Source of the DNA: Folioceros fuciformis
Lineage: Eukaryota
Assembly (NCBI GenBank): GCA_049999805.1
Contig: JBNGIO010006285.1
Coordinates: forward strand, 227,972-291,971
Direction: 5' to 3'
DNA length: 64,000 nucleotides
The translations under genes and the position numbers were made by a program. Numbering within the stretch: the stretch's first letter is position 1; every line of letters begins with the position of its first letter. This document shows positions 16,019-64,000 of this stretch, one piece after another. A model generated the notes under the pieces. That model did no database searches and was not told where the DNA came from. It worked only from the letters and a program-made list of their open reading frames with translations.

Positions 16019-16370
16019 GCGTCTGATCCGGAGCAAAGATCTGTCCACAAGCGTCTACCACGAGGAAATCCCCTCACGAACCTGGCGCCATCCAAAAGCG
16101 ACTGCGTACTCCCATCTTGCGAGCTGGCCCAATGTGCAAGCAACCCTTGTACTCTTATTTTGTAAACTGGTTCAGATGTGCAAGCAAGCCTTGTACTCCC
16201 ATATTGTGGGCTGGCTCAGATGTGCAGGCAAGCCTTCTACTCCCATATAGTAAGCTGGCTCAGATGTGCAGGCAGGCCTTGTACTCCCATACTGTGAGCT
16301 AGCTCAGATGTGCAGACACGCCTTGTACTCACATCTTGTGCTGGCTCAGAGGTGCAAGCAAGCCTTCTTC
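15960..16370. repeat. Two adjacent minisatellites (~29-bp and ~44-bp units) at the 5' end of the Agenet gene
   Basis: GCGTCTGATCCGGAGCAAGGATCTGTCCACA in 2-3 copies, and a unit resembling GCAAGCCTTGTACTCCCATATTGTGGGCTGGCTCAGATGT in about 5-6 copies. Confidence 0.8.
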
Positions 16371-20121: not shown

Positions 20122-21135
20122 CCTATAGAGCATGATGATGACACATTTCTGTGCCGACTAGGTGTGCCAAAAGTGCTATAGAGCATGATGATGACACATT
20201 TGTGTGCCGACTAGGGTGCGAGACACAGACACAGGTGTGTTCAATTGGGAATAGACCAAGGTGCATGACATAGGAGTGTTCAATGTCAATGGGGCATAGA
20301 CCAAGGTGCCTGACATAGGAGTGTTTAATGGGGCGTAGATTGAAGTGCCATGGGTGTAGACTAAGGTGCCTGACACACGAGTGTTCAATGGACTGACACA
20401 AGAGTGTTCAATGGAGCATAGATGAGGTGCATGACATAGCAGTGTTGAATGGACTGACACAAGAGTGTTTTTAATGGAGCGTAGATTGAGGTGCCTGACA
20501 TGAGTGTTCAATGGACTGACACAAGAGTGTTCAATGGAGTGTAGATTGCGGTGTCTCACACAAGAGTGTTCGATAAGGTATAGTCTAACATGCCTGACAC
20601 AGGAGTGTTCAATGGAGTGTAGATTGCGGTGCCTGACACAGGAGTGTTCAATGGACTAACACAAGAGTGTTCAATGAAGTGTAGATTGCGGTGCCGGACA
20701 CAAGAGTGTTCAATAGGGTGTAGTCTAACATGCCTCACATAGGAGTGTTCGGTGGGGCCATAGACTAAGGTGTTTGATACAAGAGTGTTCAATGAGGTGT
20801 AGATTCAGGTACATGACATAAGTGCGGNNNNNNNNNNAAGAGTGTTCAATGAGGTGTAGATTCAGGTACATGACATAAGTGCGGCCATAGACTAAGGTGT
20901 CTGATATAAGAGTGTTCAATGAGGTGTAGATTCGGGTACATGACATAAGAGTGTTCGGTGGGGTATAGATTGAGGTACTTGTTTGGTGGGGCGTAGACTA
21001 AGGTGCCTGACATAGGAGTGTTTAATGGGTTGCAGACTAAGGTGCTTGACATTTGATGGGGTGCACACTAAGGTGCCTAACACAAGAGTATTCAATGGGG
21101 TGCAGCAAAACACAAGAGTGTTCAATGGGGTGCTG
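20122..21135. repeat. Degenerate satellite/minisatellite array (~39-bp units with ~22-bp subunits)
   Basis: More than 20 variants of GAGTGTTCAATGGRGTGTAGA(C/T)T..GGTGCCTGACACAA. N gap at 20828-20837. Confidence 0.9.
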
Positions 21136-22130: not shown

Positions 22131-22795
22131 TAGAGAAGTTGATGACTGGTACGAGACAGTTTGTAGCAGATGGACGCTATCCTCCGATGCACTCGATGGA
22201 TTGGTGTAGGGCTGCTCAGGACTACATGTAGGGATGCTCCATCTTGCAAGGGAAGGGATTCCTCTAGCTGTAGAAGCGCCTGTCGATCTCCTTTTTTCTG
22301 CCATGGAGTCACTTTCCATGCCGGACGTTCTTCCGGGAGAAGTTCAGTTCGAAATCCAAGACAGCAGCTTGTTAATCGATGTGGCAAGTTGCATCCAAGC
22401 CAAGCACCATTCTTGCCTATCCCTCCCTTCTCGGGATGTGGCTCTTCGCTAGCTCGCCTGTTGGCCGCTGCGTTCTTGCTAGCTGGATTGAGAATAATAG
22501 AGCTGGTGATGGGTGCGTGAGTGGCGCAGAAAAAACTGCGTGTTTCCAGAAACTTCCACAGCCATCGCATGGTGCAAAGATTGGAAACAGCAGCGAGTGA
22601 TGTTGGCAGCCGTGTGTGACGGATGAGGGTGATTGTTGAACGAGCTGAAATCCGCGTCTACGACATGGCATGATTGGGACAGCCGGAAGGCATACTTGGT
22701 TGCGGAAGGCACCAGATTAGCCTGCCGGTGCCAGGTTACGGGCCAAACCAGGATGAATGCTGGCATGAATCGTGTTGCTCCGCCCCAATTTCAAC

Positions 22796-39386: not shown

Positions 39387-42300
39387 TCATAAAATCAAAA
39401 ACAAGGTCTCAAAGTCATCACAGAGCGCCCTTCCTATAAAAGTTCGGAACTCTGTGATAGACAAGTCATAAGTATGACAATACCCCTGGTAGACTGTGAG
39501 CAGTCTCAAGAACGTGTTTGAAATGAGAGGATTCAGTGGTAATTGCTTCAGCAGGCTAGTCAGTTCAAGCACTCCTGTCACAACTTCTTCTTCCTCGCCG
39601 AGGGGGCCTGCCAGCGTGAGAAGGCCAAGCAAGCTGCGATATAGGCCTTTGAAAGCGTCTTGATGATTGGTTACACCTCCTAGCCAACGCATGTTCACCT
39701 GTAGCTGCACAGCAGACCTTGCAGAAGCCAGGGCTTGTAACAAGAAGCGCTGTCTCCACAGTCTCATCCACTCTTCCATCTGCCTAGCAACTACTGGTTT
39801 AGTGTCTTGCCCAGCCTCGTGAAGTATATCGATGCCACCAAACAGGCCTTGGCCGCCGTCTTTCAAGAAACGCAATAAGCCACGCTCACCACTGATCACC
39901 GACCTCCCATGACCTTGTAACAGTATTTGAAGGTGGTAGCTACTGAGCTGTACAAAGAAGAATTCTTCCTCATGGTGGTTGTCTAGCTCTTTGTCAAACA
40001 GCCGCCGAACCAGATCCGTGCAGTGATAAACATCACTGCCGTTATCTGTTCCTATCATCAGCCGGGCAAGATAATCCCAGTACCCCATCCAAAACCCAAA
40101 ATGCTTTGTAAGAAACGAAAAACTCAGCTGCACAACTCTCTCAACCTGAGCAGGGATGGGCTTGACTGGACCCTTAGATTTTCCTCTCACGGCTATAATT
40201 TCCAAAACTGACAGAGCAAGATTTTGCCGAAGTTCCTGATCTTCATCCTCCAGAAGCTTAATAGCAATGGACCAGACAGTTAAGATGGAGCTTGCGTACC
40301 ATTCTAAGGCTTCCACGTTCTTGCCTTCTAGTACCCTCGCTTTCAGTACATGCCCAACCCATACGGCCTCTTGTAAGAGCCCACAAGCTGCAACAGCCTC
40401 AGCTGTGGCACGACGGAATTTCACTCCTTCACTTGCTTGGCTATGCATTATCAGCAATTGAAGGAACTTATCAATTCTTTCTTGAATGCTCTTGGAAAGG
40501 AGGAGAGAAGATGGCGCCACAGTTAGATCTGTTTCACTTCTGCTCCGTTCCGCAGAACAGGCAAGTTGGTCCTTGTCACCATTCCTCATACGGTTGGCTA
40601 TTGTTGCAACAGAAAGGTTTGTAGATTGAGGGACGGTAACAAAAACGGTTGGACCGGGGAACTTGACTGCTTCCTGCTGATCGTGCCGTATCTGGAGAAC
40701 TAATTGCCCTAGGCACCCACCCAGACATCGTACAGCTATCTCTCTGGTCTTGCTGTGTCTTGATTTTCCATAAACTATTATCAATCTGTCCAATAATTGG
40801 AGCACAGACGACCCTTGGCCCCACACAGAATCTGTGCATAGGTCTTTGGCCGTGTCTTGCCCCTGAGTCCCTTCCACAACACTTCTCAGAGCATAGATCT
40901 TACTCCAACAGAAGAAGACACCTAGAATGCTCCGAACGCAACCGGGATGACTCTCAATGTCTAACCGATCTAAACACACCGGTTGCAGTAGTTCGACAAC
41001 CAGGGTAAGTAGTTTACTCAGCCTTTGGGCACCATGTACCAACTGAAGTTGTTGATTGTTCACGAGAACATGTTGGAAAAACTTTCGCAAGACCTTCAGA
41101 GTTGCAAATCGGATTTCATACTTATCATCGCAAAGAGCCTGACTCAATTGCACTTTCAACATACTGTAAGAAAAAGCACCAATGGAGTGCCCAGTAGATC
41201 CACCTTGTGGAGGCCTGGCAACCGTCCCATCTGCCCCGGAGACAGCGGTATTACCCCAATATCCATCCACCCCTTCGACATTGTCAAGCCAATTGCGCAG
41301 ACCAATTCTAAAATATACAGAGGCTGCTATTTCCCGCAAAATAGTGAACGAAGAGTCGTCTATGGCTTCTGCTCTCCTTTTGTACTCAGTTAGGCATTCC
41401 ATACACAAGTGTACCAGAGACGATTCCAGGCCATAAAAAATTTGACATGCTTCGATTTGCAACATGTGGCACGTCCTCCCAACCTCCAACAATCCATCTA
41501 ACAATTGTAAAAACCCCCCAACCACCATGTGGCAACGACAGAGCTCCACAGAACCAAGCCACAAGAATCTCTCAAGAGTCATAGCAACCATGGTAACAGT
41601 TTTGCATCTCTCCTCTACGTCTGGAATACCTGCACAATTGGAAGTCAAAAGAATGTGCATTTGCAACACAATGCCGTGGACAGCATTAAATGATAGAGTT
41701 TTCCTCTGTTGTTCAGGCAAGCTCCCTGCCAGCCCGACAAGCACACTACACAAATGCTCCTTAGAAACAAGCGGTGCTAATGCCCGAGATGCAAGGACCC
41801 GTACGTGTTGATTACGCTGTGTAGCACATCGAGTTACATACGGCATGAAAGCTGAGGGACTTAGCCAATCTTCACCATCATTATTTATCAAAGATGGTTT
41901 AAGCCGTGATAGAATAATTAGAACTGGGCCCAAACTTGGGTGCAGCCTGTTTGCCACCCCTGCACCCTCATTTAATCCACCACCCGTCCCATGCTCTAAC
42001 TGAAAAGTTGCAGACTGCAGTTCTTCCAATAAAAATGGATGCAGAGCTGGATACCTACAACCGAAAGAGACCGTGGTTACTAGAATGAGGCAGGTCAGTT
42101 TCCGAATACAACTTACTGCCAAGTATCACCATGTCACTCGGATGAATAAACAGCTGTTACCTGTGGAAAAACTCAAATCCAGTGATGGCTCGACGTGCTG
42201 ACTCCCGTTTGTATGCATTCAAAAATCCAATCGTGCGATGCACAAGTGCAGTAAACGCTATAGTTGCACTATTCCTCACTTCCCAATGTCGGGACGAGAA

Positions 42301-45300
42301 TGCTCTAATGGCAACAATTAGTCCCTCTGCACAAAATCCCGAAGTATCTGTTGCCAAATTCGTGTCATGAAAGGCTACTCTCATAACATTAAAGCAATGA
42401 ACGGCTGGAACAACTCCATCATCACGTGATTTGAGAGCCCCAGGCAAATCCTTTTCCACATTCTCCAAACCCACATCACCACCAGCCATGCTTTCCCTTT
42501 TCAGTACTGCCGACATGGCATCATTTTCTTTTCCTGCCTCTGACAGAAAGTTATTTGCCGTATTCAGTATCCATCTCATCGCTGCAGGAAGGAGCTTCTT
42601 AGGTGCACCATCAGGCTCCGACAGAAACAGGGCAAGAAATGCTGCAGGGATCCCAGCACTCCTCCTGAGAAGATCATCAACAGTCTGCCCCTCTGCACCA
42701 GTATGTTTCATAAGCTGCTCCAGCCAAGCTTCTGGCATGGCATTCAACCTGACAGCAGAAATCCATATGGTGAGACAACAAAACTTAAATAATGAGTACA
42801 ACAGAGGGTGCCTGAGCACTACGTCAACCACTAAATTTCCTTTGGAAAGCCATACAAACGGCAATACAAAATGAGGTTAGGGAGGTTTGCATACCGTGGA
42901 TCATTCGACCGCAGAAGACGGTCACAAAGCGCTGTGAACCCAGCCCTAGTCTTGTCGATTGCACCATTATGCTTCATTGATAAAAGGACTTGCAGAAAGT
43001 GCTCACCAATGTTCTCAAGCTGCTTTGTATCCAACAGGATTCCTTCATCATTTGAAATGTCTCCTGTAAGGGAAGCCTCCAACAAGAACCCGTGGCCATC
43101 ATCAGTAGTTGAGTCAGCACTCTCAATGGTAGACCCTGGTAATGGAACTCTTCTGGTGATTGTGCCAAGTAGAAGACTAACCTGCGAACGGGTTCAAGAT
43201 TTGCACTGCACATCAGCACTCACACTAACAGCATCCGAACGGTTACCACACACATGCCACGATACTTTCCATTCTTTACCTCCTTCATTGAAAGCCAGCA
43301 CCCAACCATCACCATCTGCTCCACGGGTGCTAGGCCTTCCTCATCGTCACTCTCTTCCATGTACCCTGCTGCCTCTGCATGGATGCCAGCTTTTGGACCG
43401 TCCCCAGCATGATCATCCTTAATTAACTCATCTGGGCTCAGTCCAAACCTTTCCTGAATATTCAGAGCATCAGCTGATACAACCCACAGGGCAAGGGTGG
43501 TCACGTGCAATAGGAGACTAAGAAGCCTCTCCAGAGCAGTCCGAATGCATGAGGAAGCCATTCGGATGGCTGTAGATGAGAAATCAATCTCATCCATTGT
43601 GTACCGGAGGACCAGCAAAACACCATGCACAAAACTCTGCTCGCATGCTTTCACAAGATTCCGATCTCCTTCACCAACACCCCATTCTAGCCAGTTATTA
43701 AGCGACTCTATGTAAGCACCAATAGCTGCCCCGATTCGATGCATCTCAGAATTTGAATTATTCTCGGACTGTCTGGACTGCTTGACTACATGGGGCTCAG
43801 GATGCATTTCCACAGTCCATCCGAGGTGGCAGACATACTTTTGAAAGATCAGACGTAGAGCTAAGGCACCAGCATCACTTTCTCTTACACGAGGGCTTTG
43901 CACCAATCCTTTCACCCAAACCAAAACTTTCTCAACTTCCACTTCTGAATCCAGGCCAGGCAAAGGAGTCGGAAACCTTGTCAGAACCTTAAAAGCACCT
44001 TCTCTCAGCCTATCCCAGCTATCAACAAGGGAACCGAAAACAACAGACGTTGACTCAGGAGAGAGTAGTCCTTTGTTGTATGGGGAGAAGTCATTTGAAT
44101 CCAGAAGCGGAGAAGAGCTGTAACGACCAGACCTTTTGGCGCAAGGATCAGACAAGTCCCAGACCTCAATAAGTGCGTTTAAAATCTCCATAGCCATGTT
44201 CTTGCGCTCATAAGGAGCAGAAGGATAAAGTGAACAGACAACGAGCTGACTCAACCACTGCATTAAATGCTGCATATCCTCCACACTAACAACAATACTG
44301 TTCTGGTCAACTTCAGGATCGGCCATTGCCAAGTGCTGCAACTCTTCAGATGATAAGTGCTCACTTCCAGTCCTGTTGGGGAAGTAGTTGCTTTGACTGC
44401 CGTTCACAGCTCTTTTGCAGCGATCAAACTGAAGTTTCTTCTCTCTCTCCACAGCAGTTCGTACTCGTATGAAGAATTTCTTCAACAGGCTTATCCACTT
44501 CATACGAAATCCTGTAGATGAGCACCGCATATTCAGTGGTAGAGCGATATGCAATAACCTCAATTCCAAGGGAGATGGCATGGATGCTGTCTTCGGGCTT
44601 AGGCAAATTAATTCAGCAATATCCACTCTGACCCCATCTTCCATGTGGGTTACAGCTGCTTCCAGCAAAGACATGGGCACTGAGATTGGCTGCCCCCTTA
44701 CCAAGAAAACTGCCGATGTCTGTGTAAGGGAACCAAACGTGCTCTCTTTCCCACAAGGAAGTTCACCACAGTATGTAATAGCTCCATCCATAAGCGCCGC
44801 AGACCGAGCCACCTTTAGAATTGAGATGAGAGCTGCTACCTGTTGTTCACTTGTGATACTCTCTGGTAATCCGGCTGCTCCTTCAAGCTCATTCCAAGAA
44901 AAGCTACTTGTATGCTCATTGGAGTCCATGCCCGAAATGCAAGATTCAGGGCCAGTGGAAGAGTCTGACTTGGCCTCATTCAGCACAAAGGCAAGCATGG
45001 GCAATAGGGCATCAGGATCAATTTCCAAGGCCACAGGAACAGCATAGATGTTCAGATTGTTGCGCAACCTGGTGTTCCCAGCAACGAGTCCAGCTAACAA
45101 GGCAGGAACCCAGAGTCTTCTGAACGTCAGGCTGCCCACCGTTACACCCTGGGAGCTCCAATAGTCCTCCCGTAACCGCTCAAGAAAGGATTTTAAAAAC
45201 GAGCTGACAGAGCAGCAGACATCATCATCCTGAAGAGCAAAGATAGTCTCGTGCAGAAGATTAGGACTCATTTCCAGCAGCCTTTTCGCTCCAAGTCGCA

Positions 45301-47041
45301 AAGATAAAGAGGCAAGAGGCACATACCGGCCCTTCCTGTGACCCCCTACTGATAGCAGATCAGTTGCAAGATCCAGGAGAAACTGTTCAGTCGCGGACTT
45401 GGTAGATTTGATACACTGTTCTTCACTATCGCTATGTGGGTGGTGGCCCAGCTGCATCTCTGCAGATAAAGTCGCCAGCGGCAAGTCCTCATATGCTTGT
45501 GGAGCCAGCGAGTGAGTCAAGGCACCAGTTGTTTTCATAGGGTCATGAACGGACTGCACATCAATCAGCAAATCGAAAACGATCTGAACCTGCTTCACTG
45601 TTTGCGTGAGAGGATCCTCCCAGTTGTTCCACACAATCTGCAGCACCTGCTTAATCATGGAGACCGGGAGCGGATTATAAGCCTCGAGAGACAATTGATG
45701 CTTTGCGGCAGCCTGTGAGAACTCTACAGCCGAAATACTCGTCACATCTCCAGTGATGGACGCTTTGATCTGCTGCAGGCACATCTGAGCAGCGGTAATG
45801 GTATGAAACTTGAAATGGCTGTCGATAGCCCTCTCGCAAAGGCTGCACAAGGCAGGAAGAATTCCATCGTACAGAAGCGTCCATACTGTCCACGTCCGAT
45901 CCGCCACTGGTGGCATCGATGCCAGCTCTCCTGGTGTTTCCTGAGGAACACGGACGAGGTGAGCATTCAGAGCAGATCGTGGTATACCAGTGAGCAGCCC
46001 ACGGTAAACGCAAAGCTTTCCGAAGTCGGAGAAGCTCCCAATCTCCGTCGCAAGAGTGCTCCCCCGTTTCGCATGAATAGCAACCTCCAGCATCCCCCGG
46101 TGCCCCTGCTCAAACAACAAACCGTGCTCTTCAGAAAGGAGAGCGTAACGGACACTTGTCGAGCGAAAAGCAGCGCTGGCAAACATGAAGGCAAGAGACT
46201 GAGGACACATCCCGATCTGGGATGCAGCACACAATGCCACTCCTGCGCCTACTACACAGTCACGAGACAAGTGCGTGCATTGCAGCACAGACAAGATGAC
46301 TTCTACTGATGCCAGATAAACTTCATCAAGGTCTCCTTGCAAACGCTCCTGAGAATCAGCAGGGCACCTGAAACTCCCGGAGAACCCCTGCAGTAAATAG
46401 TACAAAGCAGACATGGAATCCTGGCATTCCTCCATTGTCTTGGGAGTCGGCCGCCCGCCCTGCCTGGCATGCGCAAGAACGTCCTCCACATTGCGACACA
46501 GAGAAAGTACGATGGGCTTCAGGCAGTGTTCGGTGACTCTCCGCACCAGCCCGGACCTCTGCGGTAGGGTTGCCAGGGAGGTGGCCAGCCCGGTGAGAGC
46601 GAACTTGCGCTCCTTGCAGCCCCCGGCACCGTAATCCTGGCAGCCCTGGTAGAAGGCATCCTGCACCCAGCCGACTCTCTCAGCCGGGAACTGGTGGAGA
46701 AAAACGGTGAGCAATCCTTTGTGCAGGGGTCGGGAATTCTCCCCGAATACCAACTCCGCGTACAAGCTAAGGGCCCGCCTCGCATCCGGTTCCAGTTCCT
46801 GTTCCTCTTGGCCCGCTCTGCACAGCCCCACCAGCTGGTCTGACAGCCGCTTCACAGCAGCAATCTGCGCAAACGTGTTGGCCATCTGCACGAACTCCCT
46901 CAGAGCTGCCCCGAATGAACTCACTTCGGGAACATCCGATGCTGCAAGTGCCAGCAAATCCTTGTCCGCGGAAGGGGGCAATGTCAAACCCCGGTCCGTC
47001 CAGCGCTTTCTCCTCTGCTGGGCTCTCCACTTAGCCGCCAT
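39387..47041 (-). CDS. THADA: THADA / Trm732 (DUF2428) ARM-repeat protein (exons ~47041-43280, 43181-42895, 42748-42161, 42054-39387)
   Basis: 'MAAKWRAQQRRKRW', 'WNNWEDPL', 'SLYPSAPYERK', 'SPRVRESDAGA', 'VGCWLSMKEVSLLLG', 'KHNGAIDK', 'RRSAGIP' and 'WEVRNSA...EFFHRYPALHPFL'. Confidence 0.93.
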
Positions 47042-48055: not shown

Positions 48056-49010
48056 TCACAGGTCAGGCGTCTCAGGGGCAAGCTCAATCTCGGGAACCAG
48101 AGACTCGGTCTCAGGGGCAAGAAGCTCTGTCGCGGTCTCAGGGGCACGAATCTCTGTCTCGGTCTCAGGGGCAAGGTGCTCTGTCTCGTTCTCAGGGGCA
48201 GGAGGCTCTATCTCGTTCTCAGAGGCAAGAAGCTCAGTCTCGATCTCAGGGGCAAGAAGCTCAATTTTGGACTCGGGGGCAAGAAGCTCTGTCCCAATCT
48301 CAGGGGCATGAAGCTCTGTCTCGGTCTCAGGGGCAAATAGCTCTGTCGCGGTCTCAGGGGCATGAAGCTCTGACGCGGTCTCAGGGGCAAGTAGCTCTGT
48401 CGCGGTCTCAGGGGCATGAAGCTCTGACGCGGTCTCAGGGGCACGAAGCTCGGTCTCGGTCTCAGGGGCAGGAGGCTCAGTCTCTATTTCAGGGGCAAGA
48501 AGCTCAGCCTCGATCTCAGGGGCATGAGGCTCAGTCTCGATCTCAGGGGCAAGAAGCTCAGTCTCGGTCTCAGGGGAAAGAATCTCAATTTCGGTCTCAG
48601 GCGCAAGAAGCTCTGTCCCAATCTCAGGGGCACGAAGCTCTGTCGCTGTATCAGGGGCAAGAAGCTCTGTCTCAGTGTCAGGGGCATGAAGCTCTGTCTC
48701 TGTCTCAGGGGCCAGCTCGGTCTCAGGGACAAGGAGTTCTGTCTCGGTCTCAGGGGCATGAAGCTCAGTCTCGGTCCCAGGGACAAGAAGCCAGTCTGTC
48801 TCGGCCTCTGGGGCATGGGGCTCTTTCTCGGTCTCAGGGGCAAGAAGCTCTGTCTCAGTCTCAGGGGCAAGAAGCTCTGTCTCAGTCTCANNNNNNNNNN
48901 GGGGCAAGAAGCTCTGTCTCAGTCTCAGGGGCATGAAGCTCTGTCTCTCTCTCAGGGGCATGACGCTCCGTCTCAATCTCACGGGCAAGCTCGGTCGGCG
49001 CCTCGGCCTC
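48056..49010 (-). repeat. 27-bp coding-type minisatellite encoding an 'APETETELL'-like 9-aa acidic repeat (~30 copies)
   Basis: Repeated CTCAGGGGCAAGAAGCTCTGTCTCGGT on the plus strand, with an open minus-strand frame. N gap at 48891-48900. Confidence 0.9.
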
Positions 49011-49661
49011 AGGGGCAGGTTCGGATGCTTCACTACGACGGCTCCGGCTCTCCATGCGTGCAAGGGCGACACGAATTCGAAGTCGCCAGAACGCCCCCGA
49101 AGAAGTTGAAGCATTGTTGCCGTAAGGCACTCCACGATGAACATGCATGGCATCCCTCGCTTGTTGATACTTTTGTAACCACAGGAGACTGGTGAAACAA
49201 TTAGAGGTGAGCGCTGCTGCTGCTTCTGAGCAGAAAATGAACAGCACGACGTACATTCTCAAACTATCGGGTCTGCCAAACACGGTAATGAAGAAATTCC
49301 TGCAACCGAACATGAGCTGTGTTACTGTACAATTTCTAGCGGAAGCTGGTGAGGACGTCTTCCTCAAGCTTCACTAGAAACCAATTTCTGGCGAATTCCT
49401 GAGGACCTCACGCTGAAACATGCCGTGACAAGGTTACCTGATCTGAAGTGCGAACATAATAAACCAAACCGCATTCATCGTTGTTAAAGACGCCGAAAGA
49501 GCCGCATATGTATGAACAAAAGCCGGGATGGCAATGTCTCTCATAGCTAACACAGCTAGGGCCAAGTTTATCACTGAGAACCCGAAATACATTGATCCAT
49601 TTGATCCTATCATGGCGCAGTCCAGGAAACATTCACAACTCGACATACTGTCAGTACAGAC
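48056..49661 (-). CDS. Hypothetical membrane protein with a long acidic repeat tail (gene model uncertain)
   Basis: Hydrophobic segments in ORFs 49434-49922 and 48888-49367. The second ORF runs in frame into the repeat before the gap, and the frame stays open to the stop at 48056. Confidence 0.4.
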
Positions 49662-50830: not shown

Positions 50831-53415
50831 GTCGGCGATGTGTGAGAAGCTTTGGGCTAGGTAACAACTTTTGTAGATGGATTGCAATGCTTTGTGAGGA
50901 TGCAGGTGCAATGGTCTCTATGAGCGGATCCTTTACCGATAGGATTGATATCAAGAGGTCGGTACGTCAAGGATGCCCTCTAGCCCTGTTCATGTTCATC
51001 ATTGTCACTGACTTTCTTCTGCAAGCAATTAAGTAGGACTTAAGGATTGAAGGCATTCAGAATCCCGACGACTCGCAGCTATGCATCTCGGCCTTTGCTG
51101 ATGATACCCTGTTATTCTCATCTGCAGATACGACGTCCTTAACGGCCTTGCTCTCCAAGGTTCAGATTTTTGGTCAGCTATCAGGGTGCAATGTGAATTG
51201 GAGCAAGATTAGGATTATGTGCGTTAACATGCAGGAGGAGCCACCCGACTACATTAGACACATTATGCGGGTCCAGCCCAGCTCGTCACACAAGTACCTA
51301 GGCCTGTCATTCCAAGAAGAGGATGAGAATGCTGAGATTGGTAAATATGTCTGCCTCAGGTTCATTCAGAAAGCAATCAGCTTATGCCTTTTGGATCTTA
51401 GTCTTGCAAGCAGAATCGTGGTCATAATCCATATTTTGACCACTTCCTTGTGGTACTATTTGTTCTTATGGGCCCCCAGGAAGGTGGACCTGATAAGGCT
51501 GCAACAGATTATTTCCAACTTCTTGTGGAGTAAGTCGAAGGAGCTGCTCTCCCCTTCCCATGAGATGGTGTGGCATCATATAATACAGAGCAAGCGTTTG
51601 GGTGGGCTTGGACTAGTGGATCCCACTTGCAAAATGAAGATCCTTCATGCGCAATGGGTTCTGAAGGCAGCTGGCCCAATGGGCTACCCCCGGAAAAGTT
51701 GGTTAACCCAACACTTGCAGCAAACTCAAGCGGTGGTCCCGGGGTGGAGGTCTATTGACAACTTATTGGCGAATAGACCCTTGCTTGACACTAGGGAGTG
51801 CTCTCCACTCTTTATCTCAATTTGGCGCAGCTTCTTGGAAGTTAAAACCTTCCTTAACTCAGTCCTGCCCAGGAATAGGGATGATGCACTGGGCCTCCCT
51901 CTCCAAGGGTTCAAGGGGCTTTGGTCATAGGAATTCCGTTCGCGGGTGTGTCGATCCCAGATTTTTGTTTCCGCTGGTAGAAGAGGCATTGTGCAACTCG
52001 GGCACCTATGGAACCGAGTAGAAGAAGGATGGAAAACAGTGGAGAAGGTTCGAGAAGAGTTTGGGACTCCGGTTAGACATGTGAGACTAATGCTTTCATG
52101 GCTACAAAAAGGGATGGCAGAAGAGGTGAAGCAAGCGTTATTACGGCAGGCCCAGGTGGGCATTCACACCCTATGGAAGATAGGCTGAGAGATTCCGACT
52201 AGAAGGGGGATGCAGCCATTCCAGACTTTGACAGGGCAGTGCTTGTATCATCTCTGACAGACGACAATGGGAATCTATCCTACAGGACTTTGAGCACAGA
52301 GGGGCTTCTGGAGGTTATAGGCAGAGAAGAAGGTATGATCGGTGGAGTGTGCTTGAGGGGGATTACCACGCTTTACAAGGCGAGGCGAGCGGGTCATTGG
52401 CTTACCCAAGAACAGCATGATAGCAAGAAACAACCTCCGTATCGAAGTCCTGTAAGATGTTGGTTTCGCTTGACGGAGAATTGGAAGTTAGTGATGAGAC
52501 ATGACCTCTATACGTGGCTTGTGACCTCTGGAAGTATACAGAAGAATGCGAGGTCACTCTTCAACTTTCCTTCGAGCACCATCTACCTTTGGTTGGTGCG
52601 CACACAAAAATCTCCTTAGCGAGGTCAACTGGCTCCTAGGTTGAGGCTCTCCTAGTGTCGCCAAAGGGCAACGATCAAACTCTTGTGGTCGACCATTGGG
52701 TTAGTCCCCAAGGTGCGGATTACCATCAAGTGTTTCTTCCAAGCTTGTTTGCCTAACGTGGATCGCCGGGATGGGTTGTTGGCGGCCACGGGGGAGGAGT
52801 AGTGCAGGCTTTGTACTGTTGACGCCCCGCACAAAAGCCAACATATCTTCTTCCAATGTGACTATGCCCAAGGTGTCTAGATTGAAGTTGGCAGATGGCT
52901 CCAAAGTCTTCTCCCGGAGAGAACCATTGTGGTTGCAAAGCAAACTGCCCTATTCGGGCTACATGCGCTGACAGGAGAGCCGCTCGTTCAGAAGCAATGG
53001 TGGGGAGTGGTGTGGTCTCTATCTCTTTGCGCCCTATGACAAAATTGGACAGCTATGGTCTATGGCGGGAGTAACCCGATATCAAGGAAAGCTCTGCTTT
53101 GGCATATCTGGGAACAAGTCCTAGTGATGGCGGAGAGCATTCGTACTTCCGCTCCCAACAAGTTCAGACGGACAGAGTGGAAGGCAGCTGGATTCCTCAG
53201 GCATAATGGCCAGTGAAATCACTCCTGCCCGTGGGAAAGGTAAGCCACACATTGACGAGAGATCTCTCGCTTGCACGATAGATCAGATTTGTTCACCTCT
53301 GCAGTCTAGAAATTTGCAAATAGACTAACGCCTTACACAATTGCGCGTGCAAGCGCTGTACTCTGGATGTAGCTTGAGCTACGGATAATCAAATTTTTTT
53401 CTTCGCGAAAAAAAT
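50830..53415 (+). mobile_element. L1-type LINE relic (5'-truncated RT plus zinc-finger region)
   Basis: 'RSVRQGCPL', 'AFADDTL', 'SGCNVNWSK', 'KYLGL' and 'KRLGGLGL', with stops and frameshifts. An A-run lies at about 53408-53414. Confidence 0.85.
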
Positions 53416-55580: not shown

Positions 55581-56977
55581 TAAAGCGAGGGCCAGTTCAA
55601 GGATTAGTATTTTATTAATAGAGTGCACGGGTATTTATACATATAGATTATTTGATTCCAACAACCTAACAGCAATTTTGTAGTTTTTCTCTAATGGCCA
55701 TAGTTTTAGATTAGGTTAGAACTCAAACTCTATTTAATGCGAAACGTGCCTTAAAAACACAACATCCACGAGCGCTAAGACACGTGATGCCGCAACACCT
55801 ATCCCCAACGACAAGATTGTTGGTCTTGCCCTTTCGGTATTCTGTCTTTTGTATGTTGTCCATGAGTGCACAATGCACCAACTCCTCCTCGTTGCATTTA
55901 GGCTATGAGTTTGAGTGTTTCTATAGCCAAGCTCTTAAGCGGATATCCATGACACCTCCTAGGCTTAGAAGTCATTTGATCTCAATAGAGACCTAGGCTT
56001 AGAANNNNNNNNNNTCTCAATAGAGACCTAGGCTTAGAAGTCATTTGATCTCAATAGAGACTTTGAGAAAATACATGTCTTATCGTGATTGTGTACAACC
56101 CAATTCCTAGCCATGTTCGTATTTGTGTCTTCTTCGCATGTATGTCAACTTGTGTGTCTTTAACTATGTCACCTTGAGTGTGGTTGTTGGTACCAAAAGA
56201 CCATCAAAGGATACCATTCAAAAGGCAAGAAGTATTATTGAATAACTCCCATGGCATCATAGGTGGTTGTGTGGATAAGTAGTTCATAGGAGTCACAACT
56301 CCTAACAGGCTCTTAGCATAAGTTGCAGTGCATGACAATGGACTATGGCTCTTCTTAGCTTTGTCTAATATGACTTCTATGATAGTGCTTTGTAAGGCAT
56401 GATGAAGACAACAAAAGCTGGCTACCTTCTTTCACAACACAAACATACACAACTTTTGTTGGCTCCAGTGCTAGAAGGAACTATACCCCTTAGTAAAGAG
56501 AACATATTGTTGGAAGGGCAAACAAGCGAATGTTTACAAAACACTCTCTACTCTTTCATACGCGAACGACATTACTCAACTCCCTCGCTGCTTTTACTTG
56601 CTAAACTAAGCATCCTACATACTAGGCACACATAGGCCCTCATTCTCACATGTGCCTCTTGCTCACTTTGGGCTAGAGGTGCCCATGAGGGCTTGCACAT
56701 AGGCACCTATAACCTGAAATTGGCTAGAGGCATCAACACAATCACGTACTCATCCCAAGTATCTTCAGCTGAGCTCTGAAATCTAATCAATGCTTCACAC
56801 TATAGGCCCTAACATAGCTATGCCCAAGCTGTCACCCTCATGAGAGCCTCTATCTCATTTCGAGGCTGTAGTTTGCATGTGAAATTTTCCGGCCACCTAT
56901 AGCCCATGCAATCACTTATTCATCAAGGATCCTCAGCACTGCTTCAAAATATGCTCAATGCTTCATGAGACAACTCA

Positions 56978-57126
56978 AAGACACTGGGTTGCTAGCTTTG
57001 CATGTGAGCCCTTCTTCCCCTAAGTGTGTAAGAAGAATGGATCGTAAGGTAGTAAGACACTGGGTTGCTAGCTTTGCATGTGAGCCCTTCTTCCCCTAAG
57101 TGTGTAAGAAGAATGGATCGTAAGGT
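56978..57126. repeat. Direct tandem duplication of ~73 bp (period 76)
   Basis: AAGACACTGGGTTGCTAGC...GGATCGTAAGGT occurs at 56978 and 57054. Confidence 0.9.
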
Positions 57127-58137
57127 GGTAATCGGTGAACAAAAACAGTATAGGTGATAACAAGCCAAAGGTTGATGATTCACACTACAACGTTGTTGAT
57201 CATGAAAATTTTCGAGAAGAATCAATATTTCGAGTAGACAGGAAGGGGGCTAGAAATAAGTGCTGATGGCAGCTCTCTACATTGTGCACACCCTTAACAC
57301 TGGTGGCTTTATACAAAACAACATTATGGGCTTATCTCTTGGGCTAAGTCACTTTTGTGATTTTTTCTGGATTTGCGCTTAGATGTTCTGGTTAAGATTT
57401 GGCTTTGATGATTATTTTCATAGTAGTACAGTAAAATAAAAATTTAATGTATGTGTTTCTTCCTAAACCCTAATTTGATACATACAATTATTTTATCAAA
57501 AGTTTTCACCCTGCGACAAAAGTCTCACTGACCTGCTGAGAACCTTGGAGAGAGTTAGCATCATAGCAATACTTGAAGCCTCTCCGTCTAAGAGGTTATG
57601 CTGCAAGTCAGGCCCTGATGGTGAAATAAGAACGACCTTATATATAGGCATCGTTGTCCAAGAGTGACTTTTGCACTTACCACCGTCCGTTCACTCCGTG
57701 GGTGAGTATCATCTTGCTTCACTGATTTGCCCAGAATGATCCTGCTCCATTCCCTCGACGGATGGGCCAGCATACTTAGGTAACTGCGGATGGAAGCTCC
57801 AGCTGCATCGCCGTCCTGACCAATTTACATCCACGTCTATACAATTCAGACACAGACCAACCACAATGAGCTTTATCTGGCAGCGAACGCGATCAAAATT
57901 TGTGATTGAATCACATGCCTGTGAGTGTCCTACAAAACAACCATGGACTTGAGATGAACATGGGGAACTAACCCACAACACTTATGCTGTTGAAGCTGTT
58001 GGCGGTTCAAAAGATGCACATGTTGAAAGTTTTTAGTCAGCTTGAACGTCCTGCAACAACTTGAGAGTGTGTGGCACAAGGTCCACGCCTTTGTTTCGAC
58101 CAGAAGATCCCGTAACTTCACATATGTATCTTGGCTG

Positions 58138-61100
58138 TCACAATGTTTTCTGATCCCCAACAACGAACACGTGTGCATTTCCATTCAAGTCCATCCACCA
58201 GGTGCGTCCTGCTTCTTTCCAAGCTTGTGACTCTACTCTCATTTCCTGAACCTTCTTCGCCTCCTGTGGAATGTGAGCAGCGGCATAGATATTTGACATC
58301 AAAATGTATGCTGCAGCGTCACTTTTGTCCAGCTTCACAGCGAATTCAAATGCCTGCCTCCCAAGCTCCACATTGCCCCAATTTCGACAGGCAGCCAAAA
58401 GGCATTTCCACACTCCACTGTCAGGTTGGATAGGCATTGTCTTCACCATGTCCATTGCATCATGGATTCTGCCCGCACGGCCAAGAAGATCAACCATGCA
58501 ATTGTAGTGCTGCATCGTTGGGGTAATGCTATACTCCCTGCTCATGGCCAGAAACAATGCCTGGCCCCTGTCTACTAAACCACCGTGACTGCATGCGATT
58601 AGGAGACCAACAAATGTTACGTCGTTTGGCTGCAAGCCTTGCTTCTCCATCCTCCTGAACAGGTCAAAGACAATTTCACCCTCCCCTTGACGGGCGTATC
58701 CCCCTAGCAAGGCATTCCATGCTGTAATATCTTTACTGGGCACTCTGTCGAACACTTGCTGTGCATCCACCATGCTTGAACATTTGCCATACATGTCAAT
58801 CAGACTGTTGGGTATAAATGAGCCAAGCTCTAAGCCAGCGTTCAAAATCTGGCCGTGAATCTCTCTCCCTTTCTCCAGACCGGCTACATTGCTGCACGCG
58901 TTGAGTGCACCAACATAGGTTCGCTCGTTAGGGATGACACCCTCCTGCTGCATTCGTGTGAACAACTGCAAAGCCTCTTCACCCTTGTCCATTTGAGCAT
59001 ACCCCAAGATCATGGAATTCCACGACACCACGTCACGCCTGGGCATTTTCTCAAACATCTCCCTGGCATCTTCCAGACTGCCACACTTTGCATACGCATC
59101 GACAAGCATGTTCCCTACAAACAGATTTAACTCAAAGTCGTCCTTTCTGACATTCGCATGGATGGCTCTCACAGATTCCAGACACAGCTTTCTAAGCTTT
59201 ATCAAATCACCACCATTTCTCTCCGCTGACTCTACAATGGCAGTGCAAGCTTTAATTGCACCAACGTATGTTCGATCATTTGGGACTACCCCTTCCTCTT
59301 GCATACGCGCATACAATTGCAAGGCCTCCTCACCCTTCGCCATCGTGGCATACCCCAAGACCATGGAGTTCCATGACACCACAGAACGAACAGGCATATC
59401 TTCAAACACCTTCCTGGCATCCTCCAGGCTCCCACATTTCGAGTAAGCATCTACTAGCTTATTCGCCACAAACAGGTTCCCTTGAAAATTCCCCTTGACA
59501 ACATTGGCATGGATGGCTCTCACAGTTTTGAGGTACTGTACTTTGTCCCCATCATCGTTGTTTCCTTCTCTGAGTTCTCCAATGGTACTGCAAGCTTTCA
59601 GTGCGCCAATATACGTTCTACTATTTGGCAACACACCATCCTCTTGCATCTGTGCATACAATCTTAGAGCCTCCTCACCCTTCTCCATCTCAGCATACCC
59701 CAAGATCATTGCAGTCCATGACACCACATCCCGATCAGATAGATTCTCAAACACGTGCCTAGCATCCTCCAGACTCCCACACTTCGCATACGCATCCACA
59801 AGCATTGTCCCCAAGAATCTATCCAACGCCTTCCCCCCCTGTCCAATATCTGTATGGACGCTTCTGACAACCTCAAGGCATCGCTCTTTCCCACGTGTTC
59901 CATGACCAACATTTATGTCCACCAGTTCTCCGACAATACTACAAGCTTTGAGCACAAGAAGATGCGTCTGGTCGTTCGGAACCGTACCAACCTCCCTCAT
60001 CTGTGTGTACAACTGCAAAGCCTCTTCAGACTTCTCCGTCTGGGAGTGCCCCGAGATGATGGAATTCCACGAACCAACATCCCGACGAGGCATTTCGTCA
60101 AAGACCCGCCGAGCGTCCTCCAGGCTCCCACATCGTGAGTAAGCTTCTACAAGCATGTTCCCCACAATCACACTTGATGAAACGTTCCCACCTCCAAAGT
60201 CTGTGTGTATGGCTCTCACAGTTTCCAAACACTGTCTGCTAACAGCTACCACGTCACACCCGTTTCTGTGCCCCCATTCCGCAACGGCAATACAAGCCGT
60301 AAGGGCACCAACACAAGCTCGCTCATCGGGAAGCACACCTTCCAGCCGCATTTTCCTGAACATAAGCAAAGCATCTTCAGCCCTACCCATCTGAGCGCAC
60401 CCAAATATCATGACAGTCCAGGAAACCACAGTACGAACAGGCATACGCTCGAAGACCAGTCTAGCATCCTCGAAGCTTCCACAGTTTGAATACGCATCCA
60501 CCAACGTGTTTCCCACAAACACATTCCCCTCACAGTTCGACTTCCTCACATCCGCATGGATGGCTCTCACGGTGTCGAGGTATCGTCCTTTGGCAACACA
60601 GTCATCACCATCCACCGATCCTAAAACAGCAGTGCAAGCTTTGAGTGCAGCCACGTACACCCGATCGTTAGGAACCACACCCTCCTGGTGCATGCGTTTA
60701 TACAATTCCAAGGCCGCTTCGCCCTTTCCCATCTGTGCGTAACCCGAAATCATGGAGTTCCAAGAGACAACATCCCGGTGAGGCATCTCCTCAAACACCC
60801 TCCTAGCATTATCCAAGCTCCCACATTTCGCATAAGCGTTCACAAGCATGGTTCCCACATAGATATCAGTCTCCAAGCCATTCCTAACCACTTCTGCGTG
60901 AATATACTTGGCAGTACTCAGGTCCTGCAGGCCACTGCACGCCTTCAAGAGAAGGACAAAGGTATGTTGCCCTGGTTCCACCCCATGCTCCCGCATATCC
61001 TGATACAGCTTGAGAGCCTGCCTACCGTGCCCAGACTTGCTTTGCTGCGCTATCAATGTCGTCCAGGAACTTTCCCCTCCCTGGTGTCTGAACTGCCCAT

Positions 61101-61263
61101 CACAACTGGAGCTACTTGTCCAGCTGCCCCTGCCAAACAGTGCGTCCTCCCGCAGAGCATTTGTCACACAATTCAGCTCCCTGACGCCCTCAGTGCTCGA
61201 TCTAACGACTCCCACAGGACATTCTAATCCAAACAAGCCAGAGACTCTGTGAGAGGTGAGCAT
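58138..61263 (-). CDS. PLS-class PPR protein with elongated L motifs and a WW-type PG box, truncated in E+; intronless
   Basis: About 8 P-L-S triplets, E1/E2, then 'WKEAGRTWWMDLNGNAHVFVVGDQ'. The first ATG is at 61263; the ORF opens at 61314. Confidence 0.95.
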   Translation of the reverse strand: MLTSHRVSGLFGLECPVGVVRSSTEGVRELNCVTNALREDALFGRGSWTSSSSCDGQFRHQGGESSWTTLIAQQSKSGHGRQALKLYQDMREHGVEPGQHTFVLLLKACSGLQDLSTAKYIHAEVVRNGLETDIYVGTMLVNAYAKCGSLDNARRVFEEMPHRDVVSWNSMISGYAQMGKGEAALELYKRMHQEGVVPNDRVYVAALKACTAVLGSVDGDDCVAKGRYLDTVRAIHADVRKSNCEGNVFVGNTLVDAYSNCGSFEDARLVFERMPVRTVVSWTVMIFGCAQMGRAEDALLMFRKMRLEGVLPDERACVGALTACIAVAEWGHRNGCDVVAVSRQCLETVRAIHTDFGGGNVSSSVIVGNMLVEAYSRCGSLEDARRVFDEMPRRDVGSWNSIISGHSQTEKSEEALQLYTQMREVGTVPNDQTHLLVLKACSIVGELVDINVGHGTRGKERCLEVVRSVHTDIGQGGKALDRFLGTMLVDAYAKCGSLEDARHVFENLSDRDVVSWTAMILGYAEMEKGEEALRLYAQMQEDGVLPNSRTYIGALKACSTIGELREGNNDDGDKVQYLKTVRAIHANVVKGNFQGNLFVANKLVDAYSKCGSLEDARKVFEDMPVRSVVSWNSMVLGYATMAKGEEALQLYARMQEEGVVPNDRTYVGAIKACTAIVESAERNGGDLIKLRKLCLESVRAIHANVRKDDFELNLFVGNMLVDAYAKCGSLEDAREMFEKMPRRDVVSWNSMILGYAQMDKGEEALQLFTRMQQEGVIPNERTYVGALNACSNVAGLEKGREIHGQILNAGLELGSFIPNSLIDMYGKCSSMVDAQQVFDRVPSKDITAWNALLGGYARQGEGEIVFDLFRRMEKQGLQPNDVTFVGLLIACSHGGLVDRGQALFLAMSREYSITPTMQHYNCMVDLLGRAGRIHDAMDMVKTMPIQPDSGVWKCLLAACRNWGNVELGRQAFEFAVKLDKSDAAAYILMSNIYAAAHIPQEAKKVQEMRVESQAWKEAGRTWWMDLNGNAHVFVVGDQKTL

Positions 61264-61777
61264 ATCGCCACAAAGGTCAGACCAAGCCACATAGCAGCCC
61301 AAATCTACCGCCAAGGAACCGAATGCTTCAAAGATTTTTCAGTCACCTCCATCTCTTTTCAGTGTTGGCCGTAGCTCCAAATTCTCAGGGTCTCAAAAAA
61401 AAGATCGCTCCAGAATGCCTGCAGCATCACATGACAAGAGGACATGCAACGCATTATCCAACACTACATGACCTTGCTACCTACATAAGCACACCTAACC
61501 TACCATACATGAACTGACATATATTTATAATGCTCAAATAAATATAATAATATCAATCAATATTTTATTTAAAATTTTACAAGCTTCATGTAATCATTTT
61601 GGTGTAACCTTTATAAATTTTTTATTAGATATTTCAAACTCATATGTGTTATTCACATTTTTAAAAGAGACTCTATGCATACTTTGATTAGAAGCTAGAA
61701 AGATCCAACTATCCACCTTCGTAGTATTACCATACCCTAATATTTTGCTCTAAAGTAGAAGCTTTACGTCTACTTAA

Positions 61778-62899
61778 TTACTTACTGCTATAATACTCTA
61801 ATATTCTACCATAAAGTAACTGCTTTAATTCATGTTGGGACAAATCGGCTAATCCAAGAATCTCAAACTGGGACCACACCTTGGACCAAGCATCTACACC
61901 ACAAGTTTTTTGTTCTTGAGCTCCCACTTCAAAACAAGATTGTAACAAAACCTCTTTAGCTATGATGACTAAGTTGGAACTACAAGTCTTCAGTCCTTCC
62001 TTCTTTCCAAAAAAGGGATGTCTCAAAGCTTCTTCAGCTGTGATAGCTTTTTGCTTACTTTTCACAGAAAGAAGATGGAGTAGTGATACAACCATAGGAT
62101 CAGCTACACGACATCTATCTTTATGATATCTTGTAATGTTTGTCTTCAAATCTACTTCAACTGGATATGCACTTGATAATATTTCCTCGAAGATGCTAGC
62201 TACATCCCAAATATCAATGAAGGAGTGTTTTAAAGACGTCTTTGGCACACCATAAGCTTGAGGTCCTAAGTGAAAATCTAGTGATGGATGGAGATAGTAC
62301 CCATTAGTTGGCATGGCTCGAGCTAACCCAAAATCACATATTTTAAGTAAACCGTTAGAGTTTACTAGTATGTTGCTGGACTTCAAATCTATGTGGACAA
62401 CATTCATGGAATGCAAATACTGTACTCCTGAAAGGATTTGGTAGAGGAAATCTCGTTGTTCATCTGTAGATAAATTTGAGTCGTTTAGCACTGCAGAAAG
62501 ATCATTAGCCATGAGTTCCGTCACTATGTACACATCATCAAAATCTTCGTTTGGTGGAAGAAATACATCTTTGAATTGAACAACATGTTCGTGTCTTAAT
62601 GATTGAAGTAAGGCTAGTTCTCGGAAGGTGCTTAGAATTATGTCTCGATTGTTGAAGAGATGTATGCGTTTGATGGCCACATTTTCTCCTCTTGTCAAGT
62701 CTTCAGCAGCATATACCATTCCGAAAGCTCCCTGACCTAAATATTTCATCACATGGTATGATGATTGAATACCATAATTAGGAAAATAAGAACCAATTGG
62801 TTCGCTGTAATTACTCATCACCTTTCCAGTAACAAGCATATGATTAAGAAAGAGTGCAGTATATGCAATAACAATCGTCAGCATGTAAAAACCCTTCAT
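61778..62899 (-). CDS. Divergent MAP-kinase-like protein with a hydrophobic N-terminus; intronless
   Basis: GQGAFG, VAIKRI, TFREL, 'DFDDVYIVTELMANDL', 'FLYQIL.G..YLHS.NV.HIDLKSSN', 'LKICDFGLAR' and 'ITAEEALRHPF'. No TxY or APE motif. Confidence 0.9.
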   Translation of the reverse strand: MKGFYMLTIVIAYTALFLNHMLVTGKVMSNYSEPIGSYFPNYGIQSSYHVMKYLGQGAFGMVYAAEDLTRGENVAIKRIHLFNNRDIILSTFRELALLQSLRHEHVVQFKDVFLPPNEDFDDVYIVTELMANDLSAVLNDSNLSTDEQRDFLYQILSGVQYLHSMNVVHIDLKSSNILVNSNGLLKICDFGLARAMPTNGYYLHPSLDFHLGPQAYGVPKTSLKHSFIDIWDVASIFEEILSSAYPVEVDLKTNITRYHKDRCRVADPMVVSLLHLLSVKSKQKAITAEEALRHPFFGKKEGLKTCSSNLVIIAKEVLLQSCFEVGAQEQKTCGVDAWSKVWSQFEILGLADLSQHELKQLLYGRILEYYSSK

Positions 62900-62944
62900 T
62901 TTAATAAGTGAACTTTAGACTTGAGAAGACAAAGTTTTAACTAG

Positions 62945-62954
62945 TTTTATATAA
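62945..62954 (-). promoter_or_regulatory. Putative TATA box of the MAPK-like gene
   Basis: TATATAAA on the minus strand, about 50 bp upstream of the ATG at 62899. Confidence 0.45.
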
Positions 62955-63084
62955 AGGGATTCAAGCGAGGTAGGAAACGGCACAATACCAATGGGCCATA
63001 TATACTATACACCAATGGTCCATATATAGTATATAATAATTCTTGAATTCGAATGATTTGTATAGGCAGGATTCACGCGATTTC

Positions 63085-63116
63085 CAACCCTAAACTCTAA
63101 ACCATAAACCCTAAAT
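63085..63116. repeat. Short degenerate plant telomere-like tract (CCCTAAA, ~4 units)
   Basis: AACCCTAAACTCTAAACCATAAACCCTAAA. Confidence 0.6.
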
Positions 63117-63193
63117 TCGAGCCTGTGCCTTTATGGCTTCCTGCGCCTAAGGAGTCTAGCAGAAAAGCAGTTAAGTGGATTTGAGGACTGTCT

Positions 63194-64000
63194 TCAGTGC
63201 CGGTCCATACAAGAACAGAACCCGCCCAGGAATCGATGAACTCGATGTGCATCCCTCACTATGATCTCCCGCTTCTCAAGCCGTGACATGATCTTGGTGC
63301 TGCTATGGCAGTCATCACACATGCGAAGATTTTTGGTAACTAGTAAAGTGGCGCCGTCTGCTGTATGCAGCAGGCCGTACGCCAACGCCAGTTTCTCGGC
63401 ATGTCCACAGAGGGCATTCTCCTTTACCTGCTCACACCATGCGTTCAACACTAGCTCTGTTTGTGGCACATGGCCTCCTTCCTCCTTCAGCCTCGCATTC
63501 ACACTCCTCGACTTACACACAACGTCAGGCCTTCCTTCTCCTACTGTGAACTCATGCACCTCGTTCTTCACTTCGATGCATGCCTTTGCAGGCTTCTTCA
63601 TGGCACCTGCCGACTTTCTCAAGCTCTCTATCCTTTCTGCATCGTGCCACCTGCCTGCTCTGGCATAGATGCTCCCCAGTAGGATGTACGCACTCGCATC
63701 ATCTGCTTCCAGTTCTACAAGACGGTCGAAGCATCGTCTTCCACGCTCTACATCACCGTAGCTTTTGCAAGCACTCAGCAAAGCTGTCCAGGCAACAACG
63801 TCGTTCACAAATAGCCTGCTTCGCACCATGTTTTCAGCCTCACGCAGTTTTCCTGACCGCCCAAGAAGATCAACCATGCAGCTGTGGTGATAATCAGTAG
63901 GCACAATCCCGCCGCGTTCTACCATCATCTTGAAATAATGCTGGCCTTCGTGCACCAGGCCCGCGTGACTGCATGCCACAAAGAGACAGATGTAGGTAGT
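63194..64000 (-). CDS. PPR-E-DYW:KP ('KPAxA...DRH') protein, 3' part only; candidate U-to-C RNA-editing deaminase-family enzyme
   Basis: L2-S2-E1-E2, then 'KKPAKACIEVKNEVHEFTVGE', 'LCGHAEKLALAYGLL', 'KNLRMCDDCH' and 'DAHRVHRFLGGFCSCMDRH*'. The gene continues past the window end. Confidence 0.95.
   Translation of the reverse strand, partial: TTYICLFVACSHAGLVHEGQHYFKMMVERGGIVPTDYHHSCMVDLLGRSGKLREAENMVRSRLFVNDVVAWTALLSACKSYGDVERGRRCFDRLVELEADDASAYILLGSIYARAGRWHDAERIESLRKSAGAMKKPAKACIEVKNEVHEFTVGEGRPDVVCKSRSVNARLKEEGGHVPQTELVLNAWCEQVKENALCGHAEKLALAYGLLHTADGATLLVTKNLRMCDDCHSSTKIMSRLEKREIIVRDAHRVHRFLGGFCSCMDRH

Follow-up and report, generated by a model that had tools for sequence, protein, structure and literature searches.

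To our knowledge, no protein module other than the DYW:KP domain has been linked to U-to-C change at specific sites in RNA. Two reports characterise the class by a KP in place of PG, an Ala or Cys in place of the Ser in the HxE motif, a retained HxE...CxxC arrangement and a variable end that is not DYW (PMC11845758, PMC9478123); most such domains lack the xHP residues and are 133 aa long (PMC9478123). The hornwort DYW:KP proteins form two subgroups, DRH and GRP, each named from its last three residues, and a tracheophyte KP cluster stands apart from them (PMC9478123). Lineages in which the class occurs are those that edit U to C in their organelles, namely hornworts, lycophytes and ferns. Hornworts carry over 1400 PPR proteins, according to a review.

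A review of December 2025 cites synthetic proteins alone as proof of U-to-C editing, and we found no assay of a native DYW:KP protein, or of any DRH-type protein, in the literature consulted. Seven consensus DYW:KP designers have been assayed, and three of them edited U to C in both E. coli and HEK293T cells: KP2 and KP3, which are of the GRP type, and the fern-type KP6 (PMC9478123). Designer KP1, mainly DRH-based, is not named among the three. In the same report, HAA and AxxA mutants of the KP designers are dead, and changing HAE to HSE mostly lowers activity. KP6 is described as catalysing both U-to-C and C-to-U change, in human cells, and KP2 and KP3 as having no C-to-U activity. The second report makes Lys88 of the KP designers essential for U-to-C editing, its replacement turning them into C-to-U editors; an equivalent lysine is also kept in the PG type, such that it is necessary for U-to-C change and not diagnostic of it (PMC11845758). 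A lysine Schiff-base crosslink is the proposed intermediate, at which the designers are said to stall in bacteria, and native fern RNAs are described as not crosslinked.

The window considered here is the whole stretch of DNA that was analysed, 64,000 nucleotides long, and its last portion on the minus strand (63194-64000) is best explained as the 3' part of a PLS-class PPR gene that carries a DRH-subtype DYW:KP domain and comes from the nucleus of a seedless land plant, most likely a hornwort. The frame is stop-free, comprises 268 codons followed by a TGA stop (63194-63196, minus strand), and is open at its 5' side where the window ends. It has Pfam matches to PPR, E_motif and DYW_deaminase, and its parts follow the order L2 (partial), S2, E1 and E2, then a 133-aa DYW-type domain. 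DYW_deaminase is matched over residues 176-266 (E = 4e-32) and E_motif over residues 81-142, covering E1 and E2 (E = 1.3e-16), and with such E values the motifs in this frame are far beyond chance.

Boundaries of the repeat motifs were inferred by counting motif lengths back from the KP box, using 36/32/34/34 aa for L2/S2/E1/E2, which we take to be the canonical lengths; the partial L2 and the three complete motifs fit these lengths in frame. L2 is represented by its positions 2-36 (residues 1-35, 63896-64000, minus strand; Pfam PPR at residues 2-30), with I at position 5 and T at the last position. S2 follows (residues 36-67, 63800-63895, minus strand; Pfam PPR_1 at residues 31-60) with S at position 5 and D last, then E1 (residues 68-101, 63698-63799, minus strand; Pfam E_motif) with T at position 5 and D last, and finally E2 (residues 102-135, 63596-63697, minus strand), which has two helices in the structural model and leads straight into the KP box. 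The window stops short of the P2 motif and of the entire PLS array, which are on the far side of base 64000, and it contains neither the start codon nor the transit peptide. Target prediction was considered and set aside as not feasible: S2 (S/D) and E1 (T/D) are the only readable motifs, too little for a site, and for them the PPR code as we assume it would predict a preference for G at -4 and -3. The first-pass annotation had likewise judged the target unreadable from the window, the PPR array lying past 64000, and we agree.

The DYW:KP domain occupies 63197-63595 on the minus strand and is exactly 133 aa long when counted from the K of KP, an assignment that draws on motifs, length, tree and fold. 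It begins with the KP box KPAKACIE (63572-63595, minus strand; K1-P2-A3), which replaces the PG box (x-P-G-x-S-W-I-E) and lies within 2-3 bases of where it had first been noted (~63575-63597). The HAEK motif sits precisely where the first-pass annotation had placed it in lieu of HSE[K/R] (63392-63403, minus strand) and supplies the zinc-binding His65, Ala66 (Ser in the PG type), the catalytic Glu67 and Lys68. The codon of Lys88, the K of TKNLRMC, lies at 63332-63334 (minus strand), and this residue corresponds to the lysine that designer KP proteins require in order to edit U to C. CDDCH (63305-63319, minus strand) contains Cys93 and Cys96, ligands of the catalytic zinc, and His97; the C-terminal HRFLGGFCSCMDRH, followed by the stop (63197-63238, minus strand), forms the second-zinc ligand region, and here the DRH end replaces DYW. 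CDDCH and the terminal ligands, noted earlier as intact, and the DRH end are indeed present in the open frame, and the ligand columns are invariant in 44 domains: the invariant columns among these aligned KP and PG domains include H65, E67, K68, K88, C93, C96, H97, H120, C127 and C129.

The shortened segment after VGE that had been pointed out earlier corresponds, in the alignment to the PG consensus, to a 4-residue gap opposite the PG-type 'SHPQ' (at 63526-63527, minus strand), where the gating domain begins: the window reads VGEGRP----DVV against VGDRSHPQsekIY in the consensus of 59 PG-type domains. One residue is gained at EEGGH, giving a net length of 133 aa against 136 aa for the PG consensus. 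Among the aligned rows, 133 aa is the length of 17 of the 46 KP domains and 136 aa that of 58 of the 59 PG domains. The window domain matches the KP consensus (46 relatives) at 95/133 positions and the PG consensus at 61/133. The residue after the zinc-binding His is Ser in all 59 PG rows, which holds by definition of the label, whereas HA prevails among the KP rows and a few of them show HV or HC. Taken together, the domain shows the KP box, HAE, HxE...CxxC, a non-DYW end, 133 aa without xHP, and Lys88, and none of the four features of the DYW:PG type (PG box, HSE, 136 aa with xHP, DYW end). A tblastn search with the DYW:KP domain found no second DYW domain within the 64-kb window.

We placed the domain among its relatives using the best 120 of 1971 protein matches with E <= 1e-10, of which 115 DYW domains were retained, giving 116 rows with the window; five were dropped for BLAST matches starting after query residue 5 (P0005, P0010, P0052, P0040 and P0073). 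Rows were labelled by two columns, yielding 59 PG, 47 KP (window counted) and 10 mixed. In the maximum-likelihood tree of the 116 domains, the window falls in a branch of 53 rows (47 KP, 6 mixed and no PG; SH-aLRT 99) and also in a 19-row subclade (SH-aLRT 96). The label columns were also part of this first tree, and the tree was therefore rebuilt without the diagnostic columns (positions 1-3, the middle residue of HxE and the C-terminal end), which recovered the same 53- and 19-row sets (SH-aLRT 96 and 97). Constraining the window to the 59 PG rows cost 107 lnL units and was rejected (p-AU 0.0032). These domain trees are quick-search trees on 129-136 columns, and many of their inner forks are unresolved. 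A DYW:PG/KP phylogeny had been set in advance by the first-pass annotation as the test on which its classification could fail; the window groups with KP, and grouping with PG is rejected.

Within the 19-row subclade, the window lies among rows ending in DRH, and a starred foursome of GRP rows is separate (P0014/15/16/26); fern rows form a clade of their own elsewhere in the domain tree. A subclade of DRH and GRP rows fits hornworts, since these are the two hornwort subgroups reported in the literature. The window protein ends in DRH and is placed outside the GRP foursome, and we regard it as nearly certain that its domain is a DYW:KP domain of the DRH type. The earlier claim of an intact DYW:KP domain is thus borne out by motifs, length, tree placement and fold.

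The closest relatives among the matches listed share 60-68% identity over 268 aa and up to 81% in the domain, and they too have the KPA box, HAEK, the 133-aa length lacking xHP and a CSCxDRH terminus. The protein atlas gives the lineage as Streptophyta. Named KP-type relatives among the matches listed are from the lycophyte Diphasiastrum and the ferns Ceratopteris and Adiantum (~50% identity), and the PG-type matches listed include Cryptomeria, Ginkgo, Sphagnum and others (~40-47% identity). No exact copy of the window protein occurs in the protein collections searched. At E <= 1e-30, 1815 cluster representatives match it, and 150 representatives were classified as 87 PG, 18 KP, 40 unclear and 5 without a DYW match; none of the cluster representatives is a full-length copy, the closest being a 194-aa fragment (72-73% identity).

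An AlphaFold2 model of E2 plus the DYW:KP domain, built from 44 aligned sequences, has a mean pLDDT of 91.4 and a pTM of 0.83. Its top match among PDB structures is 9kfx_A, a synthetic PPR-DYW-RNA complex (E = 3.3e-18, TM 0.88), followed by the DYW domain of OTP86 (7o4e/7o4f, E ~1e-10) and by DYW1 (7w86, TM 0.92, target-length normalised); a sequence search of the PDB agrees on 9kfx, OTP86 and DYW1 (2.6e-44 for 9kfx, 4e-29 for 7o4e and 4.1e-28). The window domain is accordingly modelled with the fold of the solved DYW domains. In the OTP86 structure paper, Zn1 is bound by H892, C920 and C923, and E894 is catalytic. The spacing between H892 and K915 of OTP86 is 23 residues, the same as between H65 and K88 in the window domain, and the xHP missing from the window domain falls at the start of the OTP86-type gating domain (H837-G891). 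The same paper suggests that U-to-C editing may not need strong autoinhibition.

The visible 268 residues appear free of decay. At 82 columns, a residue is common to at least 19 of the 20 closest relatives; the window differs at five of them (Y/F, F/L, H/Y, A/G and V/S), all conservatively and none at a catalytic position, and this gives no sign of decay because the 20 relatives themselves differ at 1 to 9 of the same columns. The visible part could nevertheless look intact and yet belong to a broken or truncated gene, a pseudogene upstream of 64000. This reading draws on the position of the start and PLS array outside the visible stretch and on the other two PLS genes of the window, whose DYW regions are decayed or truncated, so that PPR genes do decay in this vicinity. 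We consider it very unlikely, given 268 codons without a stop, conservation within the family range, and a contig identical over 63761-64000 that extends 784 letters upstream in a run with spliced transcripts.

That run, X1, includes a contig of 3704 letters that matches the window with 0 differences over 57386-57836 and 57973-61225, joined across 57837-57972. The gap of 136 bases starts with GT and ends with AG on the minus strand, and because a contig with 0 differences spans such a GT..AG gap, X1 contains spliced, RNA-derived contigs of the same genotype. The end of the PPR gene is present in the same run: 63249-64000 is tiled by four X1 contigs that show 0 differences. The last of them is 1024 letters long, and its additional letters beyond the window end lie upstream in the gene. 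We take these contigs as a reasonable hint that the PPR gene is transcribed and continues upstream, X1 being guessed to be RNA, since none of the listed runs that contain the stretch is recorded as RNA; the tiling is not proof of transcription, because this part of the gene has no intron by which RNA could be told from DNA. X1 cover is absent at 56100-57155 and 61380-63227 (the kinase ORF described below included), which is not evidence either way. Runs X2, X6 and X11 gave diverged pieces only, at 90-99% likeness, representing relatives or paralogues. An exact 40-base scan of metagenome contigs for the gene's upstream continuation returned 0 matches, and the first 80 residues as a protein query found no identical fragment, the best of 483 matches reaching 65%. 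Completeness of the gene upstream of the window is plausible.

Besides the KP-type gene, the window contains two other PLS-type PPR genes, both of the PG type and truncated. The adjacent one encodes 1058 aa (58138-61314, minus strand) and ends AGRTWWMDLNGNAHVFVVGDQKTL at a TGA; past this stop, within 57386-58137, the same frame reads QPRYICEVTGSSGRNKGVDLVPHTLKLLQDVQAD and then TAA, which looks like a decayed DYW start. The intron at 57837-57972 (136 bases, GT..AG, crossed by the 0-difference X1 contig) lies in what would be the 3' UTR of this gene. The third gene encodes 784 aa (22772-25126, plus strand) and has a PG-type box (RPGHSWVE) with a short non-DYW tail, E+-like and truncated. Between the adjacent PPR gene and the KP-type gene is a protein-kinase ORF of 373 aa (61778-62899, minus strand; Pkinase E = 1.3e-42). 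Plant telomere-type TTTAGGGTT motifs are found at 63086-63094 and 63107-63115 (minus strand), ~80-110 bases downstream of the stop of the KP-type gene; the window contains 5 such motifs, where shuffled sequence would be expected to give 0.4, and those downstream of the KP-type gene may be telo-box-like regulatory elements.

Further away, a THADA/Trm732-like gene (39387-47041, minus strand) consists of three long ORFs of 1273, 235 and 911 aa, presumably exons split by short introns, with Pfam matches to TPR_Trm732, DUF2428 and TPR_Trm732_C; its best relative shares 59% identity, with Selaginella at 47% and Ginkgo at 43%. Four long ORFs match no Pfam family at E <= 1e-5: 11923-14100 (725 aa, minus strand), 14642-16048 (468 aa, minus strand), 48056-49153 (365 aa, minus strand) and 51148-51930 (260 aa, plus strand). 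Four runs of exactly 10 N (2614-2623, 20828-20837, 48891-48900 and 56005-56014) look like assembly gap markers.

By analogy with the designer proteins, we think it fairly probable that the full gene encodes a functional U-to-C editing factor; the U-to-C activity and targeting to an organelle are both plausible. The unseen PPR array, together with L2-S2-E1-E2, would attach to an RNA of the organelle immediately upstream of a single uridine, and the zinc-dependent deaminase-like domain would convert that U to C. The residues in play would be His65, Cys93 and Cys96 with Glu67 and the active-site Lys88, the lysine attacking C4 of the uracil if the published model of the designer proteins applies. 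The first-pass annotation had inferred a native site-specific reverse editor and a candidate programmable editing module. As written, that claim is weaker for the DRH subtype: the active designers are KP2, KP3 and KP6, not KP1, and KP6 is bidirectional.

The direction of editing is not readable from the KP, HAE and DRH motifs, because KP6 edits both ways and single residues switch direction. According to the designer work, substitutions in KP6 toward the 133-aa KP consensus raise U-to-C editing in five cases (L6C, V17T, D47E, D116A and I119V) and C-to-U editing in three (E64G, L113V and F133H), the three together making KP6 edit C-to-U only. The window domain has C6, T17, E47, A116 and V119 at the former positions and G64, V113 and H133 at the latter, and so equals the 133-aa KP consensus at all eight, where the equivalence of positions between KP6 and the window rests on their equal 133-aa length and on the coincidence of Lys88 and residue 133. 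A C-to-U or bidirectional editor carrying KP-type motifs would fit the last three residues, the dual activity of KP6, and the C-to-U editing that follows replacement of Lys88, by which the KP fold is competent for deamination. Such an editor is nonetheless improbable in our assessment, as the window domain has all five residues favouring U-to-C and keeps Lys88, KP2 and KP3, GRP designers that belong to the same hornwort clade, are described as lacking C-to-U activity, and the substitution effects come from the fern-type KP6 background only.

A U-to-C editing factor remains our preferred reading, and the combination in one domain of the KP6 residues favouring U-to-C and those favouring C-to-U is the reason for putting forward a more specific version of it, argued from the designers and in our opinion unlikely to be correct: the native DRH enzyme might be an aminase with true turnover, or an editor whose direction can be switched, and might carry the reaction to its end past the crosslink at which the designers stall. 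If native DRH enzymes did so, this would also explain the failure of consensus KP1. That failure, together with the stalling, can also be taken to mean that the window protein binds RNA and is not an autonomous catalyst, being inactive alone, dependent on a partner, or engaged in protecting or stabilising a site: the DRH-based KP1 is absent from the 3/7 designers named as active, and the designers' arrest in bacteria, at a crosslink between protein and RNA, suggests that the reaction is finished by native factors which are missing there. We assign this a low probability. The catalytic and zinc residues, Lys88 and the residues invariant in the subclade are conserved as in the relatives, which argues for selection on the active site, and a consensus design may be inactive for reasons that have nothing to do with the natural proteins, a point that the authors of the designer study make themselves.

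For the U-to-C factor that we favour, the value of this locus is that of a catalogue entry, one truncated example; the point about unassayed DRH enzymes concerns the whole subgroup. Assays in the literature consulted concern consensus designs only, none active from the DRH subgroup, and a verified natural gene of the DRH type could test how native enzymes complete the reaction and could supply a natural sequence for editor design.

Compared with canonical DYW:PG domains, which edit C to U (OTP86, DYW1 and the synthetic PPR-DYW protein; 7o4e/7o4f, 7w86, 9kfx), the window domain is alike in its modelled fold, its zinc ligands, the Glu, the Lys and the gating insertion, but it is without the PG box, HSE, xHP and DYW end, and it lies outside the PG group in the tree. 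With the designers KP2 and KP3 (GRP) and KP6 (fern) it shares the domain class, HAE, CxxC and Lys88; unlike the window gene, these are designed from the consensus of other KP subgroups and do not exist as genes in nature. The nearest likeness is to the hornwort DRH subgroup (Gerke et al. 2020, cited in PMC9478123), which has the KPA box, HAEK, 133 aa without xHP and a CSCxDRH end, and which is the basis of designer KP1. The DRH ending pointed out by the first-pass annotation is not a novelty and already names one of the two hornwort DYW:KP subgroups described in that source. The residue before DRH is M in the window, whereas it is G in most DRH-type relatives; in kind, the gene end is not new and is a typical member of the described DRH subgroup.
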